Assembly: GCA_963662265.2 (NCBI GenBank)
Contig: CAXXHA010000018.1
Coordinates: 1 to 55,115 of the forward strand
Direction: 5' to 3'
From: Spirochaetia bacterium
GTDB taxonomy: Bacteria > Spirochaetota > Spirochaetia > CADAEX01
DNA length: 55,115 nucleotides
Position 1 is the first letter of the stretch, and every line of letters starts with the position of its first letter. The translations under genes were made by a program, and so were the position numbers. Shown here piece after piece: positions 10,447 to 17,116 of this stretch. Below the pieces are notes generated by a model, which did no database searches, was not told the origin of the DNA, and worked only from the letters and a program-made list of their open reading frames with translations.

Positions 10447-11424
10447 ATGAGAAAATATAAGAAAATTATTATTCTCGGTTCCGGTTTTTCGAAAGCTGTT
10501 TCTGAAAAAATGCCTGCTATGAAGCAGCTTACCGCGATGCTGAAAAAAGAAACAAATGTGCAGAAATACGGTGCCCTTATTGAGTATGTTGATATTCTGC
10601 GCGACAGGTCAAATGACTGCGATGAACTCACCTCTATTGAAAGCATCTCCAGCCTGATTCTGGGGAAATCTTTTTTTTATAACACATCAGAATCTCTTTA
10701 TTTTGAGTATCTGAAGAATCAGCTTCTGAACTGGCTGTTTGAGTCACTGAACAGGGAAGCTCCTCTGATTGACAGTAACAAGGAGCAGATGACTGCGGAA
10801 TTTGTAAAGTCTGTATCATCTATGCGAAGCAGCGAAGAGCAGAACAATACACTTGTCATGACATTTAATTATGATCTTCTTATTGAAAGGTTAATCAGGG
10901 ATGTTCTTCATGATGAAATATGTACTGATTATATTGTGAAACTCAACAGGTACTCTGATTTATCAGAAGATTCTTCAGATAAATGTGAAAGAAAATTCCG
11001 CTACCTCAAGCTTCATGGATCGTTCAACTGGTTCAGATCTCCCGGCGGGCTGAATTACAACCTGAATAATATCTATCTTGTCAAAGAGAGTGATATGGAG
11101 CGGGAGCTTATTCATCATAATGATATCCCCGTGTTTATTCCCATGATAAGTTCGAAAATCAGCTACAGGCAGGGATCTTTTTATAATGCACTGTGGAACA
11201 TAGCAGAGCGGTATCTTGATCTTTGCGATGAGGTTTCATTCATAGGGTACGGATTTCCTGTAACAGATCTTGATAACCTTAATTTTTTCCTTAAATACAA
11301 GGAAAAGATCCGGGATATTGTGGTTTTTGAAAATCATCCGGCTTTGAGAAAGAGGCTTGAGAAAATTTTTGATTATTCAGAAATAATAAACTGTGATGCC
11401 CTTGAATATATCTGTAATAACTGA
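10447..11424 (+). CDS. SIR2-like (SIR2_2) domain protein, stand-alone
   Basis: IILGSGFS...MP, TFNYDLLIE, YLKLHGSFNW and FIGYGFP.TD motifs. Confidence 0.8.
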   Translation: MRKYKKIIILGSGFSKAVSEKMPAMKQLTAMLKKETNVQKYGALIEYVDILRDRSNDCDELTSIESISSLILGKSFFYNTSESLYFEYLKNQLLNWLFESLNREAPLIDSNKEQMTAEFVKSVSSMRSSEEQNNTLVMTFNYDLLIERLIRDVLHDEICTDYIVKLNRYSDLSEDSSDKCERKFRYLKLHGSFNWFRSPGGLNYNLNNIYLVKESDMERELIHHNDIPVFIPMISSKISYRQGSFYNALWNIAERYLDLCDEVSFIGYGFPVTDLDNLNFFLKYKEKIRDIVVFENHPALRKRLEKIFDYSEIINCDALEYICNN

Positions 11425-11512: not shown

Positions 11513-12100
11513 TTAAAGCTGTTTTTTTGTTTCTATTCTGTTTATTTTAAAATTATAGGAACTTCCTTTTTTATTATCAGTAATCTCAACTGAAAGAGGG
11601 GTAATTATGTCATTTCTTACCGGAAGCTTTACAATATTCCACCAGTTCCCGTCTCTTCCCTTTATATTCGGAATTCCCTCCCTGCCTTTGTAGGTTAAAA
11701 CAGTTGTTCCCTCTTTTTTAACTGAGCAGCTGTACCATTTTGTGTTTGCATGCATCAACTCCTGTCTTCCTATATGGAGAACAATATAACCGAACTCAGG
11801 TATTCTTTTGTAGGCTTTTTCAAAATCAACAGGGGAGGCATTATTTTTTTCAAGCCTTTTTCTGACTTTCTCTTTTTCCTCTTCATGTGTGAGGTATTTA
11901 ATACCTATATATCCGTAATTATCCCTTATGAATTTCTCCGGTTCAATTGAGTAGGAAATCTCTGTTTTTATTTCCGGCTGTAATTTTTTTACCGGGACTG
12001 CTGCTGTTAAAGCCTGTTTTTCAGTTTGACAGCCTGAAAGTATAATAAAAAGGATCAGCGGAAGCAAAATAAGCAGACTGAAATATTTCCTGATAATCAC
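11513..12100 (-). CDS. Hypothetical lipoprotein
   Basis: Hydrophobic signal peptide with lipobox ILSG-C; 195 aa. Confidence 0.7.
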   Translation of the reverse strand: MIIRKYFSLLILLPLILFIILSGCQTEKQALTAAVPVKKLQPEIKTEISYSIEPEKFIRDNYGYIGIKYLTHEEEKEKVRKRLEKNNASPVDFEKAYKRIPEFGYIVLHIGRQELMHANTKWYSCSVKKEGTTVLTYKGREGIPNIKGRDGNWWNIVKLPVRNDIITPLSVEITDNKKGSSYNFKINRIETKKQL

Positions 12101-12261: not shown

Positions 12262-13071
12262 TTACTGCATCAGTAAATCTGTTTTAACTATATTGTCTTC
12301 AGAAACAGGCAGCTTGAAGTCATAATTGCCTTTCAGATTGAACACCATGAATTTGGGAGAAGCAGCAGTATTTAAGGCAATATTTTCAACCATATCCTTG
12401 TGTATAAACTGTTTTACCCAGCCGTATGTTCCTGCTTTTGTTGTTTTCTGTTTATCTTCTTTGATGAATATCCATTCATTTTCAAGACCCAGTATCAGGT
12501 ATGATGAGAAGAATTTTGCAAAGAATGGCAGTTGCTTGTCATTCGCTGCAAATGGCTGCTGGTAGAAGAATTTCTGAATCTTGTCATTGCTGCTTATTGT
12601 ATCACCTGTGATATTGAATAGTTTAAGGTTCTGTTTGATCAGGAATTCGAGCTCCCTGCAGTGATAAAAACTTTTTCCATGCTCGATTTTTGAAACAGCT
12701 TTTCGTTCCCTGAAACTTTCCACAAAAGGAACAATATAGTCATTTCTGCAGGAATTGAAATTAATCTGATATGTTCTCTTTGAATGATAGATTTTAAGTA
12801 TTCCTTTCAGCAGTGCCGATGTCCACTCTATTGAAGATATATCATTGAAATCAAGAAAATTGATCAGTCCCTGTTCAGCATATTCGATTCCGCTGCGGCA
12901 GAGTGTAAGCACTTTGTTTTTATCCTTGATAAACTGAAACGGAAGAGGGGGAAACAATATTGAATAATTTTTTCCTGATCCGGCTTCATCTGTTTTGATA
13001 TCTGCAGGTATATCTTCAGGGGTTTTAATTTTGCTGGGCCAGTAGGTCATTGTATCAATAGAGTTTTTCAT
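12262..13071 (-). CDS. Hypothetical protein (possibly tandem bacterial PH-like domains)
   Basis: 269-aa ORF with RBS GAGGAG; two beta-rich halves. The fold assignment is a guess. Confidence 0.65.
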   Translation of the reverse strand: MKNSIDTMTYWPSKIKTPEDIPADIKTDEAGSGKNYSILFPPLPFQFIKDKNKVLTLCRSGIEYAEQGLINFLDFNDISSIEWTSALLKGILKIYHSKRTYQINFNSCRNDYIVPFVESFRERKAVSKIEHGKSFYHCRELEFLIKQNLKLFNITGDTISSNDKIQKFFYQQPFAANDKQLPFFAKFFSSYLILGLENEWIFIKEDKQKTTKAGTYGWVKQFIHKDMVENIALNTAASPKFMVFNLKGNYDFKLPVSEDNIVKTDLLMQ

Positions 13072-13315: not shown

Positions 13316-14371
13316 GTGTCAGTTAAAAGGGAAATAATAAAGCCGGGCAAGATTAAAAAAACGGAATTCTTTTCATCTTTCAGCAGCAGGGAACTCTCTG
13401 TCATTGCAGAGAACTGCAGCTTCAGGATGGTTAGAGAGGGGGAGGCTGTATTCCGGGAAGGAGACAGTTCTTCTGAACTGTTTATTGTTGACAGCGGCGA
13501 AATAATAATCAGAAAACAGGACAATGAATTCAATGATATTGATATTGCCAGGTTTCTCAAAGGCGACTGCTTCGGAGAGCTTGATATGCTTACCGGATCG
13601 AAGCGAAAGGAATCAGCACTGGCGGAAAAAGATACATCTCTGATAGTCTTTCCGGGGAAGGGGGTGAAGTTTCAGGACATGCTTACAATGCATCCTCAAG
13701 TTTCTGCCCTGATACTTCATAAATTCCTTGTCCAGATATCCGGGAGAATAAGAAACGCCAACACTCTCGTGAGTGAAAATTCCCCGCTTGTACAGGAGCT
13801 CTCCCGCCAGGTCTACCGCGATAAACTCACCGGGCGGTATAATAAAACCTACTTTGAAGAGAAAATGGAAGAGCTTCTTGCCTCCTCTTCAGGGAAAGCT
13901 GCAGTCATAATGGTTAAACCTGACAATTTCAAGGCTGTAAATGATGCCTACGGCCATGATGCCGGAGACAGGGCGCTGATAATCATGACAAAAGAGCTTC
14001 ACGATTATATGCCTGATAACAATGTTGTTGTCCGGTATATGGGTAATGAGCTTGGTATATATATTCCGGATGCCGGCAGGGAGACTGCTTTTAACGAAGC
14101 TGTCAGGATAAGGGACTTTCTTTCATCTCTTGATCTGAAAAAAGCATGTGAGGGCAATCCCTTTACTCTTTCTGTGAGTCAGGGGATATCTCTTTATCCG
14201 GAGCATACAGAAGATCCTGATACTCTTATTCTTCTTGCCCACAAACTTCCGCTTATAGGGCGTGCAATGGGGGGGAACAAAATACTTTTTCCCGAAGATG
14301 CAGATGACAGTAAAGGGGCCGGAGGATTAATAAAGTCCGGAAAAAATGAGAAGGCTCAGCGAGGGGAATAA
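13316..14371 (+). CDS. cNMP-binding domain + degenerate GGDEF domain protein
   Basis: CNB motifs (VFREGD, FGEL...R); DKLTGRYN, KPDNFKAVNDAYGHDAGD; signature replaced by RYMGNEL. Confidence 0.88.
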   Translation: MSVKREIIKPGKIKKTEFFSSFSSRELSVIAENCSFRMVREGEAVFREGDSSSELFIVDSGEIIIRKQDNEFNDIDIARFLKGDCFGELDMLTGSKRKESALAEKDTSLIVFPGKGVKFQDMLTMHPQVSALILHKFLVQISGRIRNANTLVSENSPLVQELSRQVYRDKLTGRYNKTYFEEKMEELLASSSGKAAVIMVKPDNFKAVNDAYGHDAGDRALIIMTKELHDYMPDNNVVVRYMGNELGIYIPDAGRETAFNEAVRIRDFLSSLDLKKACEGNPFTLSVSQGISLYPEHTEDPDTLILLAHKLPLIGRAMGGNKILFPEDADDSKGAGGLIKSGKNEKAQRGE

Positions 14372-16527
14372 TGAAGGAAAATATTGCTCTTCTCAAGAAA
14401 ATAGATATTTTATCTGAGCTTGAAGATGAAGAAATAAAACAGCTTTATTCGCTTATGAGACAGGTAAATCCTGAAGCAGGAAGAGCTATCTTTAACCAGG
14501 GTGATCCCGGCAACGAGATGTATGTTATCCTGAGCGGATCGATATCAATATCTGTTGAAACATCTGCCGGTGGAATGGTTGAGGTTGCAGTTCTCGGCTC
14601 AGGGCAGTTCCTGGGGGAAATGTCTATTTTCGACAATGCACCCCGTTCTGCAACATGCATAGTGAAAGAAAACGCAGAGCTTCTTTCATTCAGCAAGGAT
14701 GACTTTTTCGACCTGATTCACAATTATCCTGAGACTTCAATAAAAATACTCCACCGCATGCTGAATACGACAATAGAGAGGCTTAACAAGACAGGCAGTT
14801 TTCTTTCAGATATGGTTAAATGGGGGGAAAAAGCGAGAAAGCGTGCTGTTACAGATGAGTTTACATCGCTTTACAACAGGCGTTTCCTTGATGATTCTCT
14901 TGAAGATGTTTTTGCAAAAGCATCACTTACTTCTGAACCACTGTCTCTGGTAATGACAGATCTTGATAATTTTGGAACACTGAATAAGGAATATGGTGAA
15001 TCTGTAGGAGACAGCATAATTCTGGCGGCAGCGGAAATTTTTAAATCAGTTTTCAGGGAAGATGATATTCTTGCAAGGTATGGGGGAGATGAATTCACCT
15101 TTATACTGCCTAATACAGAGGCAGATGCTGCCCTGAAGCTGTGTGAGAAAGCAGCAGGAAGACTGAGGATGATTGATTTACTGAAAAAAAAGAAAGGCAG
15201 CATTAAAAAAGTCACTGCCAGTATCGGTGTTGCCTCATATCCTGATCATGCAGACAGCTGTGAAAAGCTTATGGAAATGGCAGACAAGGCAGTATATACC
15301 GCCAAAGAGTGGGGAAGGGACAAGGTTGTTGTCTACAGCAGCGAAGGGAGGATAAACAAGACAAAGATTGCTACTGTAAGAGAAAAAAATAATATAATAG
15401 AAAGAATAACAGATGTATTTACTGATGGAGACAGCTTTCTTGTACTCGGGCACCGTAATCCGGATGAGGACTGCGCTGCTTCTATTATTGCAGTGTCACT
15501 GCTCCTGAGAAAATTCGGGAAAACAGTTACTGTTTATGTAAAAACAGGATTTCAGAATAAATTCTCCTTTCTTTATAATATCGGCAAGTATAATTCTATA
15601 AAATTCATCGATGCAGATGATGAAGCAGAGGAAAAATACGATTCAGTTATAATTGTGGATACTCCCAAAAAGGCCATGATTGAGATGGGGCCTGTGATTG
15701 GATCATTGTTTGATAACCTCGAAATACCGAAAATTGAATTTGACCACCATCTTGGTGCAGACAGCGGTTATACAGGCGATAAGAACTATTCTCTGGTGGA
15801 TGAAGCCTCTTCCGCATGTGAACTCATCGGGTATTATGCTCTCAAGCTGAATGACCGTAAGGATCTTCTTGAGAAATTCGGAATTGATGATCTTTTTACA
15901 AGGAATTTTGTACTCTCTGTGATTACAGGTATTATAAGTGATTCAAAGATGGGTAAATATCTGAAATCCAACAGGGAGAAATGGTTTTACAGGTATTTCA
16001 GTTCTCTTTTCAACGAACTGTTGTTCGACAAAACAGACTCAGGATCAGGGAATTTTTCCACAATGGAAGATGTATTCAGTGAACTTGAAAAACTTTCGGA
16101 AGAAGAGGATTTATGCTTCCGGTATATTTCCGGAAAAATTAAAAAAACAGAATATTTTCAATATGCTGTTTTGACGGCAGAAGATATGGATTATCTTTAC
16201 AGAAATTTTCCCGATGAGGTAATTGTAACTGTTGCACGTTATTCTGCAGACATACTGGCTGAAAACAGCGGACACCTTAGCCTGTTTGTCTATTTTGATA
16301 ATCCGGACAGATCTGATCTTGTTCAGTTCAGAATCCGCCGAAACAAGGATTACAGGAAGCTTGATCTTAGAATGCTTATCAGTAAATTCAGCATAGAAAA
16401 CGGCGGAGGTCATCCCGGGGCAATCGGGTTTCGAATTGAGAGGGGCATGATAGATGATATCGAGTCATTTTCTGAGGATTTCATTAAAAATACTGAAGAT
16501 GTGATAAGAAAAATTGATAAAAAGTGA
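14371..16527 (+). CDS. cNMP-binding + GGDEF + DHH/DHHA1 phosphoesterase fusion protein
   Basis: CNB motifs (IFNQGD, FLGEMSIFDNAPRSAT); REDD-x5-GGDEF and ADKAVYTAKEWGR; DHH motifs GHRNPDED, VDTP, FDHH, GIISDS; DHHA1 GGGHPGA. Confidence 0.9.
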   Translation: MKENIALLKKIDILSELEDEEIKQLYSLMRQVNPEAGRAIFNQGDPGNEMYVILSGSISISVETSAGGMVEVAVLGSGQFLGEMSIFDNAPRSATCIVKENAELLSFSKDDFFDLIHNYPETSIKILHRMLNTTIERLNKTGSFLSDMVKWGEKARKRAVTDEFTSLYNRRFLDDSLEDVFAKASLTSEPLSLVMTDLDNFGTLNKEYGESVGDSIILAAAEIFKSVFREDDILARYGGDEFTFILPNTEADAALKLCEKAAGRLRMIDLLKKKKGSIKKVTASIGVASYPDHADSCEKLMEMADKAVYTAKEWGRDKVVVYSSEGRINKTKIATVREKNNIIERITDVFTDGDSFLVLGHRNPDEDCAASIIAVSLLLRKFGKTVTVYVKTGFQNKFSFLYNIGKYNSIKFIDADDEAEEKYDSVIIVDTPKKAMIEMGPVIGSLFDNLEIPKIEFDHHLGADSGYTGDKNYSLVDEASSACELIGYYALKLNDRKDLLEKFGIDDLFTRNFVLSVITGIISDSKMGKYLKSNREKWFYRYFSSLFNELLFDKTDSGSGNFSTMEDVFSELEKLSEEEDLCFRYISGKIKKTEYFQYAVLTAEDMDYLYRNFPDEVIVTVARYSADILAENSGHLSLFVYFDNPDRSDLVQFRIRRNKDYRKLDLRMLISKFSIENGGGHPGAIGFRIERGMIDDIESFSEDFIKNTEDVIRKIDKK

Positions 16528-16552
16528 TAATTCTGTATCCGGAGAATTGATT

Positions 16553-17116
16553 ATGGATAAAAAAATGAGATGTGAATGGTGCGGCAATGATCCTGTCTAT
16601 ATAAAATATCATGATGAAGAATGGGGAATCCCTGTTCATGATGACAGGAGACTCTTTGAAATGCTAATTCTTGAGGGGGCACAGGCAGGGCTTTCCTGGA
16701 TAACAATTTTAAAAAGAAGGGAAGGGTACAGAAAGGCATTTGATAATTTCGATGTTGATAAAGTTGCTCTCTATGATGATGCAAAGAGGGAGAAACTCCG
16801 CAGTAACCCTGAAATCATAAGGAACAGGCTGAAGATAAAATCCGCAGTGAATAATGCCCAGGTTTTTATGGATATACAGAAAGAATTCGGCTCTTTTGAC
16901 ACTTATCTCTGGGGTTTTACAGATAACAAACCTGTAAAACATCATTTCAGAGACCTGTCTGAGCTCCCTGCAAATGATGAACTCTCAGATATTATTTCAA
17001 ATGATTTGAAAAAACGGGGAATGTCTTTTGTAGGAACTACTATCATATATGCATATCTTCAGGCGGTTGGTGTGGTCAATGATCATACAAGAAACTGTTT
17101 CATGTATACTGAATAG
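16553..17116 (+). CDS. tag: DNA-3-methyladenine glycosylase I
   Basis: RCEW, YHDEEWG, LEGAQAGLSW, IIRNRLKI and VNDH...C motifs. Confidence 0.95.
   Translation: MDKKMRCEWCGNDPVYIKYHDEEWGIPVHDDRRLFEMLILEGAQAGLSWITILKRREGYRKAFDNFDVDKVALYDDAKREKLRSNPEIIRNRLKIKSAVNNAQVFMDIQKEFGSFDTYLWGFTDNKPVKHHFRDLSELPANDELSDIISNDLKKRGMSFVGTTIIYAYLQAVGVVNDHTRNCFMYTE

Follow-up and report, generated by a model that had tools for sequence, protein, structure and literature searches.

A candidate heteromeric GGDEF enzyme of Spirochaetota with one metal-competent half-site

GGDEF cyclases are taken to act as symmetric homodimers. A locus in which a GGDEF protein with an altered metal site is encoded directly before an intact paralog raises the question of whether such an enzyme could be built from two unequal halves. 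The locus lies in a 55,115-nucleotide stretch of Spirochaetia bacterium DNA (contig CAXXHA010000018.1, assembly GCA_963662265.2), hereafter called the window, and consists of two genes, P1 and P2, whose products each carry a cyclic nucleoside monophosphate (cNMP)-binding domain and a GGDEF domain. P1 and its orthologs are referred to as family A, and P2 and its orthologs as family B. We propose that P1 and P2 are probably the subunits of a conserved heteromeric, cNMP-sensing GGDEF enzyme of Spirochaetota with one metal-competent half-site.

Two paralogous proteins with unequal active sites

The two genes meet at the bases TAATG, where the last A of the P1 stop codon (TAA, 14369-14371) is also the first base of the P2 start codon (ATG, 14371-14373), and a Shine-Dalgarno-like run, GAGGGG, lies a few bases 5' of the overlap. 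Reading of the open reading frames (ORFs) agrees with the initial annotation, which had noted this overlap of two same-strand genes, and Pfam matches to cNMP_binding and GGDEF in both proteins bear out its description of each as a cNMP domain followed by a GGDEF domain. The interval that it gave ended at 15330, which is the end of the P2 GGDEF domain only; the P2 gene extends to 16527 (Table 1).

PleD equivalents were assigned by aligning the GGDEF domain of P2 to chains 2wb4/9g85 with phmmer. P2 matched PleD residues 287-450 with E = 6e-25 and was gap-free over the catalytic motifs, and P1 was aligned to P2. Every residue call that the initial annotation had made for the two proteins was correct in these alignments. 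In PleD, D327 and E370 coordinate two Mg ions, guanine is bound by N335 and D344, and the phosphates are bound by K442 and R446 (available text of PMC12943098 and PMC7288161). K332 is cited as a transition-state stabiliser in the available text of PMC12943098. P2 has the features of an active cyclase in its domain profile, metal Asp, signature, and guanine and triphosphate ligands, and lacks one of the features tested, with Gly202 where PleD has K332. Position 332 is Lys in 26 and Arg in one of the 27 other GG[DE]EF domains of the source genome, and is Gly in P2 alone.

In P1, the signature, the metal Asp and the R446 position are all altered (MGNEL, K201 and G320, respectively). R240, equivalent to R366, is kept, and R316 stands at K442. 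The Asn of the altered signature, N244, is invariant in A1, the alignment of P1 with its orthologs. Judged by these residues, P1 is a degenerate GGDEF protein and not by itself a cyclase.

The phosphate-binding cassette of the cNMP domain is kept in both subunits. P1 has the conserved Gly-Glu plus an Arg nine residues past the Glu (F86 and G87 are invariant in A1, and E88 and R97 nearly so), and in P2 residues G82, M84, R92, S93 and A94 are invariant in the corresponding alignment, A2. An AlphaFold2 (AF2) model of P1 alone had a mean predicted local distance difference test (pLDDT) score of 86.1, with a helix at residues 127-155.

Pairing of families A and B across Spirochaetota

In a class-level sample, P2 was searched against 41 related genomes. 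An A ortholog was directly upstream of, or fused to, all 18 of the B orthologs (17 in the relatives plus the window's own locus, L001), and at L018 the two form a single 674-aa ORF (L018:439-2463). A phylum sample was obtained by searching P2 residues 1-330 against 401 genomes spread evenly over the phylum (E <= 1e-55), which gave matches in 103 of the 401 genomes and 53 of the 153 genera. The 129 matches in the 102 other genomes were typed for every GGDEF domain. One of the 129 matches, L230, which is the A gene of an already counted locus (duplicating the L154 region), was omitted from the tree described below. A and B were adjacent at 95 loci and fused at 22, and B was solo at 12. The initial annotation had asked whether the two genes always co-occur; in this P2-driven search, A is directly upstream of or fused to B at 117 of the 129 loci.

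A third sample was driven by family A, whose alignment was searched against one genome per species, and the best 80 of 369 relatives were kept. Because the pattern K[PA]DNFKx[IVL]N was used for selection, this sample gives only circular counts for A positions 327, 332 and 335, and the phylum sample is relied on there; ORFs under the BLAST thresholds were not counted. Spirochaetota or a taxon within it was the label of 78 of the 80 loci, the other two having no taxon in the label. A B ORF followed A at 78 of the 80, and the two remaining loci end within 212 nt of A. The database names of family A members are generic ("diguanylate cyclase" or "GGDEF domain-containing protein"), and this matters for annotation, in that a protein without the metal site is labelled as a cyclase or GGDEF protein.

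The A-B pair is inherited as a unit, either with A first and adjacent, with overlapping genes, or as one chain, and A precedes B in every paired or fused case in all samples. Among 94 adjacent pairs, the first start of the B frame lay -355 to +196 nt from the A stop, many values being -8, -4, -1 or 0; this distance was measured with the longest possible B frame, so that overlaps are overstated. The fused ORFs are 647-685 aa long, read cNMP-GGDEF(A)-cNMP-GGDEF(B) with the signatures RGNEF and GGDEF, and belong to one clade (loci L144, L152, L153, L160, L161, L163, L165-L176, L182, L183, L195 and L209, and also L018). Six of the 22 fusions occur in genomes with a separate solo B elsewhere, and in four of those the solo B gene adjoins a DHH gene; all four solo B genes that adjoin a DHH gene are in genomes that also hold a fusion. 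Pair carriers include genus g26, with complete genomes of 2.7-2.9 Mb, in which eight of the nine sampled carry the pair. In a FastTree phylogeny of 244 modules, a single branch with support 100 separates A (115 rows) from B (129 rows), and this split indicates a single old duplication followed by co-divergence of A and B.

A complex of P1 (alignment A1) and P2 residues 1-330 (alignment A2) was modeled. The heterodimer that the initial annotation had envisaged passed its controls, with an ipSAE interface score of 0.65 (runs 0.63-0.66) vs 0.02 for the best control. In the calibration for this mark, which is only rough for custom alignments, 116 of 157 complexes of solved structure pass, as do 2 of 215 mismatched pairs. 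The runs share at least 76% of contacts, with a partner pLDDT of 84 or more. Confident contacts are made by the long helix that follows the cNMP beta-barrel of each subunit, residues 123-154 of A and 116-148 of B. The two helices are parallel and in constant register, with A residue n opposite B residue n-7, and the phosphate-binding cassette of each subunit also contacts the helix of its partner. The natural fusions are stronger evidence for pairing than this model.

Table 1. Features of the P1-P2 locus (window coordinates; equals signs and "at" give PleD residues)
Feature	Position	Strand	Basis or detail
P1 gene (family A subunit)	13316..14371	+	GTG start, 351 aa; ORF, Pfam, 13-sequence ortholog alignment A1, AF2 model
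P1 cNMP_binding domain, residues 38-116	13427..13663	+	Pfam PF00027, 51.4 bits (cut-off 27.5)
P1 degenerate GGDEF domain, residues 167-309	13814..14242	+	Pfam, 103.8 bits (cut-off 23.8)
P1 motif KPDNFKAVNDAYGHDAGD	13916..13969	+	K201 at D327 (metal Asp); K206=K332, N209=N335, H214=H340 and D218=D344 kept
P1 MGNEL (242-246), replacing GG(D/E)EF	14039..14053	+	Metal-binding acidic residue replaced by Asn; fourth-position Glu retained
TAATG, P1 stop/P2 start overlap	14369..14373	+	Layout consistent with translational coupling
P2 gene (family B subunit fused to DHH/DHHA1 phosphoesterase)	14371..16527	+	ATG start, 718 aa; ORF, Pfam
P2 cNMP_binding domain, residues 35-119	14473..14727	+	Pfam PF00027, 80.8 bits (cut-off 27.5); canonical GEM...PRSAT cassette
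P2 GGDEF domain, residues 159-317	14845..15321	+	PF00990, 140 bits (cut-off 23.8); TIGR00254, 148.5 bits (cut-off 37.4)
P2 motif DLDNFGTLNKEYGESVGD	14959..15012	+	D197=D327 kept; G202 at K332; N205=N335 kept; E210 at H340; D214=D344 kept
P2 RxxD I-site (REDD, R229-D232), R236 and GGDEF signature 238-242 (=368-372)	15055..15096	+	PleD alignment
P2 K312 and R316 (=K442, R446), triphosphate-binding residues	15304..15318	+	PleD alignment
P2 DHH domain, residues 356-491	15436..15843	+	Pfam PF01368, 44.7 bits (cut-off 28.1); aligns to TM1595
P2 DHHA1 domain, residues 620-706	16228..16488	+	Pfam PF02272, 19.8 bits, below cut-off 25.9; GGGH at 16402-16413 aligns to TM1595

Residue conservation, proposed mechanism and alternatives

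Family A is far from free of constraint. In the phylum sample, positions 327/332/340/344 are K/K/H/D in 116 of 116 domains, and position 446 is Gly in all 114 scored; the A-driven sample gives H340, R366, Arg at K442 and Gly at R446 in 80 of 80 each, and D344 in 79 of 80. The signatures in the phylum sample are RGDEF (53), RGNEF (23), MGNEL (10), QGNEF (8) and others (22), with GGDEF once. The first signature Gly has thus been lost, the metal-binding acidic residue has been lost in some clades including that of the window, and the RxxD site is absent from family A in the A-driven sample. That a Lys at a metal position and the guanine pocket are both invariant suggests that A remains under selection, and the simplest reading is that it still binds a guanine nucleotide but not the two metals.

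Family B in the A-driven sample has D327 in 76 of 76, GGDEF in 74 of 74, K442 and R446 in 72 of 72 each, and N-R-R in 77 of 77. Position 332 in the 129 domains of the phylum sample is Arg in 97, Gly in 19, Ser in 5, Lys in 3, His in 3, Thr in 1 and Asn in 1, and position 340 is His in 68. Taken as a whole, family B thus shows a conservative exchange of Lys for Arg at 332. The reciprocal losses proposed in the initial annotation are therefore present in the window's own pair and do not extend to the family as a whole. On these counts, K332G and H340E are traits of one clade and not the founding logic of the A-B pair. Gly332 is confined to a clade made up of the window's lineage and the genus with complete 2.7-2.9 Mb genomes, and the A partner carries M/Q/E at 368 plus Asn at 370 in 18 of 18 cases. 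Co-evolution of A positions 368/370 with B position 332 was considered and set aside; the tree holds 7, 4 and 4 changes at these positions, and the independent-pairs test, with a median p of 1, was powerless.

The guanine-specifying position 344 of B is Asn in place of Asp in 19 of the 129 domains (L129, L137, L138, L146, L149, L192, L197, L213, L216, L219, L222-L229 and L232), for which a different base preference is possible.

Two residues have published roles across the GGDEF dimer. The fourth signature Glu (E371) is described as the general base acting on the 3'-OH of the nucleotide held by the opposite monomer, from modeling, and a conserved Arg as stacking on the opposite base (PMC6456294, section 13). 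By numbering offsets (537-300 = 581-344 = 237), this Arg corresponds to PleD R300. The GacA offset, which we take to be 304-300 = 348-344 = 4, supports this assignment. Family B keeps both residues, R300 in 77 of 77 domains of the A-driven sample, and position 300 of A is K in 45, R in 20, Q in 12 and another residue in 3; position 301 is always Arg in B and never Arg in A. No evidence was found in the published roles, which fall on E371 and R300, that K332 acts across the interface or that the K332 of A serves the site of B.

In the mechanism that we propose, a parallel coiled coil of the C-terminal helices of the cNMP domains, as in the modeled interface, would pair the subunits and bring the dead GGDEF domain of A opposite the live one of B. 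B would bind Mg-GTP, and A would bind a guanine nucleotide without metal, with K201 in the place of Mg. Glu241 of B would activate the 3'-OH of the nucleotide in A, which would attack the alpha-phosphate of the GTP in B. Only this A-to-B phosphodiester step would have the full catalytic set, so that pppGpG would be made first; attack in the other direction would require metals in A. Since A of the window's clade lacks both acidic metal ligands, pppGpG would be either released, or re-bound in the reverse orientation and closed to c-di-GMP. Such a flip of the linear intermediate occurs in the single-site dinucleotide cyclases cGAS and DncV, and a single half-site need not exclude c-di-GMP as the product. 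Release of c-di-GMP is close to an even prospect, and release of linear pppGpG or pGpG is possible but less likely. A stricter version, in which A:B is a single-site nucleotidyl transferase that makes pppGpG or a short oligo-G as a messenger, with DHH/DHHA1 as its dedicated hydrolase and the cNMP sensors gating synthesis, seems doubtful.

Binding of cAMP or cGMP to the two different sensor domains would set the register of the helices and hence activity. A and B have linkers of the same length, with strong conservation inside each family. The source genome is rich in signaling genes; its 3.77 Mb contain 38 ORFs with a match to the GGDEF profile and 7 domains of class III cyclases. Conservation of both cNMP cassettes, together with these 7 cyclase domains, makes it plausible that cAMP or cGMP controls the enzyme via the helical linker.

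The DHH/DHHA1 module of P2 would most likely hydrolyze a linear dinucleotide. Its DHH triad is D458-H459-H460 (15742-15750), and a DxD lies within GHRNPDEDC. The DHH part comes closest to stand-alone enzymes. Nearest among solved structures are the stand-alone phosphodiesterase TM1595 (1.5e-6), one chain with no name beyond "DHH family" and one named "phosphodiesterase acting on cyclic dinucleotides". The NrnA equivalog NF053633 scored 30.2 bits (2e-7) against a cut-off of 350, which leaves P2 outside NrnA. The GdpP-specific profile PF24898 (GGDEF_GdpP) scored 21.7 bits on P2, below its cut-off of 30, no PAS match was present, and the N-terminus is the cNMP domain. With PF24898 under cut-off, PAS absent and the P2 signature intact, neither P2 nor P1 is, by these profiles, a member of GdpP/YybT. 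The presence of DHH/DHHA1 instead of EAL or HD-GYP weakly suggests, from the substrate preferences of the DHH/DHHA1 class, that a linear dinucleotide is being handled. The module is not a constant companion of the pair. In the phylum sample, DHH is absent from 67 of the 95 adjacent A|B pairs and from all 22 fusions, which makes A plus B, rather than GGDEF plus DHH, the conserved core. In the A-driven sample, DHH is fused to B at 32 loci, is a separate next gene at 18, and was not seen at 28, of which 6 are cut by the contig end. It is a separate next gene in five of the class-level relatives, and is split differently in one genome.

Several observations weigh against the heteromeric enzyme. 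The GGDEF domains are not among the confident contacts of the A:B model. Its interface is the dimerization mode of the CAP family, so that its passing score may stem from resemblance to homodimers of that family with solved structures, and A:B was the only pairing modeled. B may also work without A, given the solo B loci (12 of 129), although 8 of these are in genomes with a pair or fusion elsewhere and at least 2 are at contig edges. About half of family A retains xGDEF with its acidic residue, and the A site may therefore not be fully dead outside the window's clade; the fourth-position Glu is also kept, in 63 of 80 A domains of the A-driven sample and in all of the listed signatures of the phylum sample. 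Most B domains, with Arg332, resemble ordinary cyclases able to homodimerize, and the DHH/DHHA1 class usually dimerizes and could join two B domains. The co-variation of A 368/370 with B 332 rests on few events and gives no independent-pairs signal, and no biochemistry on any member was found in the literature searched.

Some of these observations would suit an arrangement in which P1 is a regulatory pseudoenzyme, GTP-sensing or inhibitory, bound to P2 through the cNMP helices, while two P2 subunits, within an (A:B)2 assembly or once partners have been exchanged, carry out symmetric catalysis that yields c-di-GMP. This is the explanation for which the full catalytic set of B, with Arg332 in 97 of 129 domains, the 12 solo B loci, and the usual dimerization of DHH/DHHA1 enzymes can be cited, and GTP sensing by degenerate GGDEF domains is described for CC_3396 and FimX. 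It nevertheless appears unlikely. A and B are one chain at 22 of 129 loci, which favors an intramolecular A:B pair, and a GTP sensor on an enzyme that consumes GTP would be of little added use. Moreover, the basic residue at B332 has been lost in the window's clade, so that a symmetric B:B site there would be without the transition-state stabiliser cited in the available literature.

Absence of DHH from most adjacent pairs and from every fusion also counts against a GdpP/YybT-like system, in which the P2 GGDEF domain would be a regulatory or ATPase-like module for a DHH/DHHA1 phosphodiesterase (acting on c-di-AMP, c-di-GMP or nanoRNA) and P1 an accessory sensor. P2 does share the YybT order GGDEF-DHH-DHHA1 (available text of PMC12943098), and its DHH and GGGH motifs are intact, but the match to PF24898 is weak and under the 30-bit cut-off, and the B signature, GGDEF in 74 of 74, is unlike the degenerate domain of GdpP; we regard this system as very improbable. 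Even harder to credit is that P1 and P2 are non-interacting tandem duplicates, one a degenerate receptor and the other a cyclase, each acting on its own. Tandem GGDEF paralogs are common, as the 38 GGDEF-matching ORFs of the source genome illustrate, but independence would leave unexplained the fixed-order adjacency in 53 of 153 sampled genera, the 22 natural fusions and a complex model that passes its controls.

Known systems and the surroundings of the locus

Among homodimeric diguanylate cyclases, PleD, WspR and DgcZ resemble P2 in their metal, guanine, triphosphate and I-site residues, and P2 is probably likewise controlled through an N-terminal dimerizing sensor and a helical linker. They have two identical half-sites, whereas the partner of the live domain here is a metal-dead paralog, co-inherited or fused, and P2 has Gly at K332. 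In class III cyclase C1/C2 pairs and the Cas10 Palm domains, a catalytic domain is duplicated, one copy is metal-dead, and the two form an asymmetric pair, sometimes in one chain. Those systems build one site from both copies at the interface, whereas each GGDEF copy holds its own nucleotide; the likeness to C1/C2 is thus one of evolutionary logic and, by this comparison, not of family membership. If the heteromer is true, it would be the GGDEF counterpart of the adenylyl cyclase C1/C2 arrangement, and if it also makes a linear messenger, that messenger would be new and the enzyme would be the first GGDEF synthase with hard-wired asymmetry.

The chain order of GdpP/YybT is PAS, degenerate GGDEF, DHH and DHHA1, and P2 shares with it a GGDEF domain followed by DHH/DHHA1 in one chain (available text of PMC12943098). 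P2 instead has an intact GGDEF domain, a cNMP sensor in place of the membrane helices and PAS, and a paralogous partner. A protein that resembles a soluble GdpP was seen in a related genus, where L012 (a 561-aa ORF) and L013:1501-3138 encode a strongly degenerate GGDEF domain (YGEEC or CEENC in the signature region) fused to DHH/DHHA1, without a cNMP domain. Both were excluded from the GGDEF profile used on the source genome.

Inactive GGDEF domains that bind GTP at the substrate site and control a neighboring catalytic domain are described, in the available text, for CC_3396/PdeA of Caulobacter and FimX of Pseudomonas. These regulate an EAL domain in the same chain, whereas the partner of family A is a live GGDEF domain, and the metal Asp of family A is replaced by an invariant Lys. 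Gating of a c-di-GMP enzyme by a cNMP_binding domain, as proposed here, has a parallel in Bd1971 of Bdellovibrio (cNMP_binding-EAL), which is a homodimeric phosphodiesterase without a paralog pair, unlike P1-P2. In the available text of a 2022 review, Table 5, on chemoreceptors, has Bd1971 as its sole cNMP_binding entry. In the Hypr GGDEF protein GacA, asymmetry of the half-sites and cross-dimer residues (the Glu at signature position 4 and residue 300) decide the product (PMC6456294, section 13). GacA is a homodimer whose asymmetry derives from its substrates, whereas that of P1-P2 is encoded in two genes.

No description of a hard-wired GGDEF heteromer or of the spirochaete A-B pair was found in the literature searched (subscription papers and supplements were outside its scope), and a search of the Treponema denticola literature gave nothing on cNMP-GGDEF genes. 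The A-B pair offers a natural system for separating cis from cross-dimer roles of GGDEF residues. It bears on whether one half-site suffices for c-di-GMP and on how cAMP/cGMP inputs are wired into spirochaete c-di-GMP signaling.

A promoter and terminator scan of the locus was uninformative, with 12 promoter-like sites vs 12.0 expected from shuffles. Downstream, a methyladenine glycosylase gene (PF03352, 272 bits) occupies 16514-17116 on the forward strand. If translation begins at the earliest start, 16514, rather than at an ATG further on, the gene shares 14 nt with the end of P2; it may be co-transcribed with the P1-P2 pair. Upstream, a 325-aa forward-strand ORF at 10447-11424 has a weak SIR2_2 match (23.4 bits vs a cut-off of 24.5). 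It is followed on the opposite strand by ORFs at 11513-12100 and 12262-13071 without a Pfam family, the former of which has a hydrophobic N-terminus ending in Cys that looks lipoprotein-like by eye alone.

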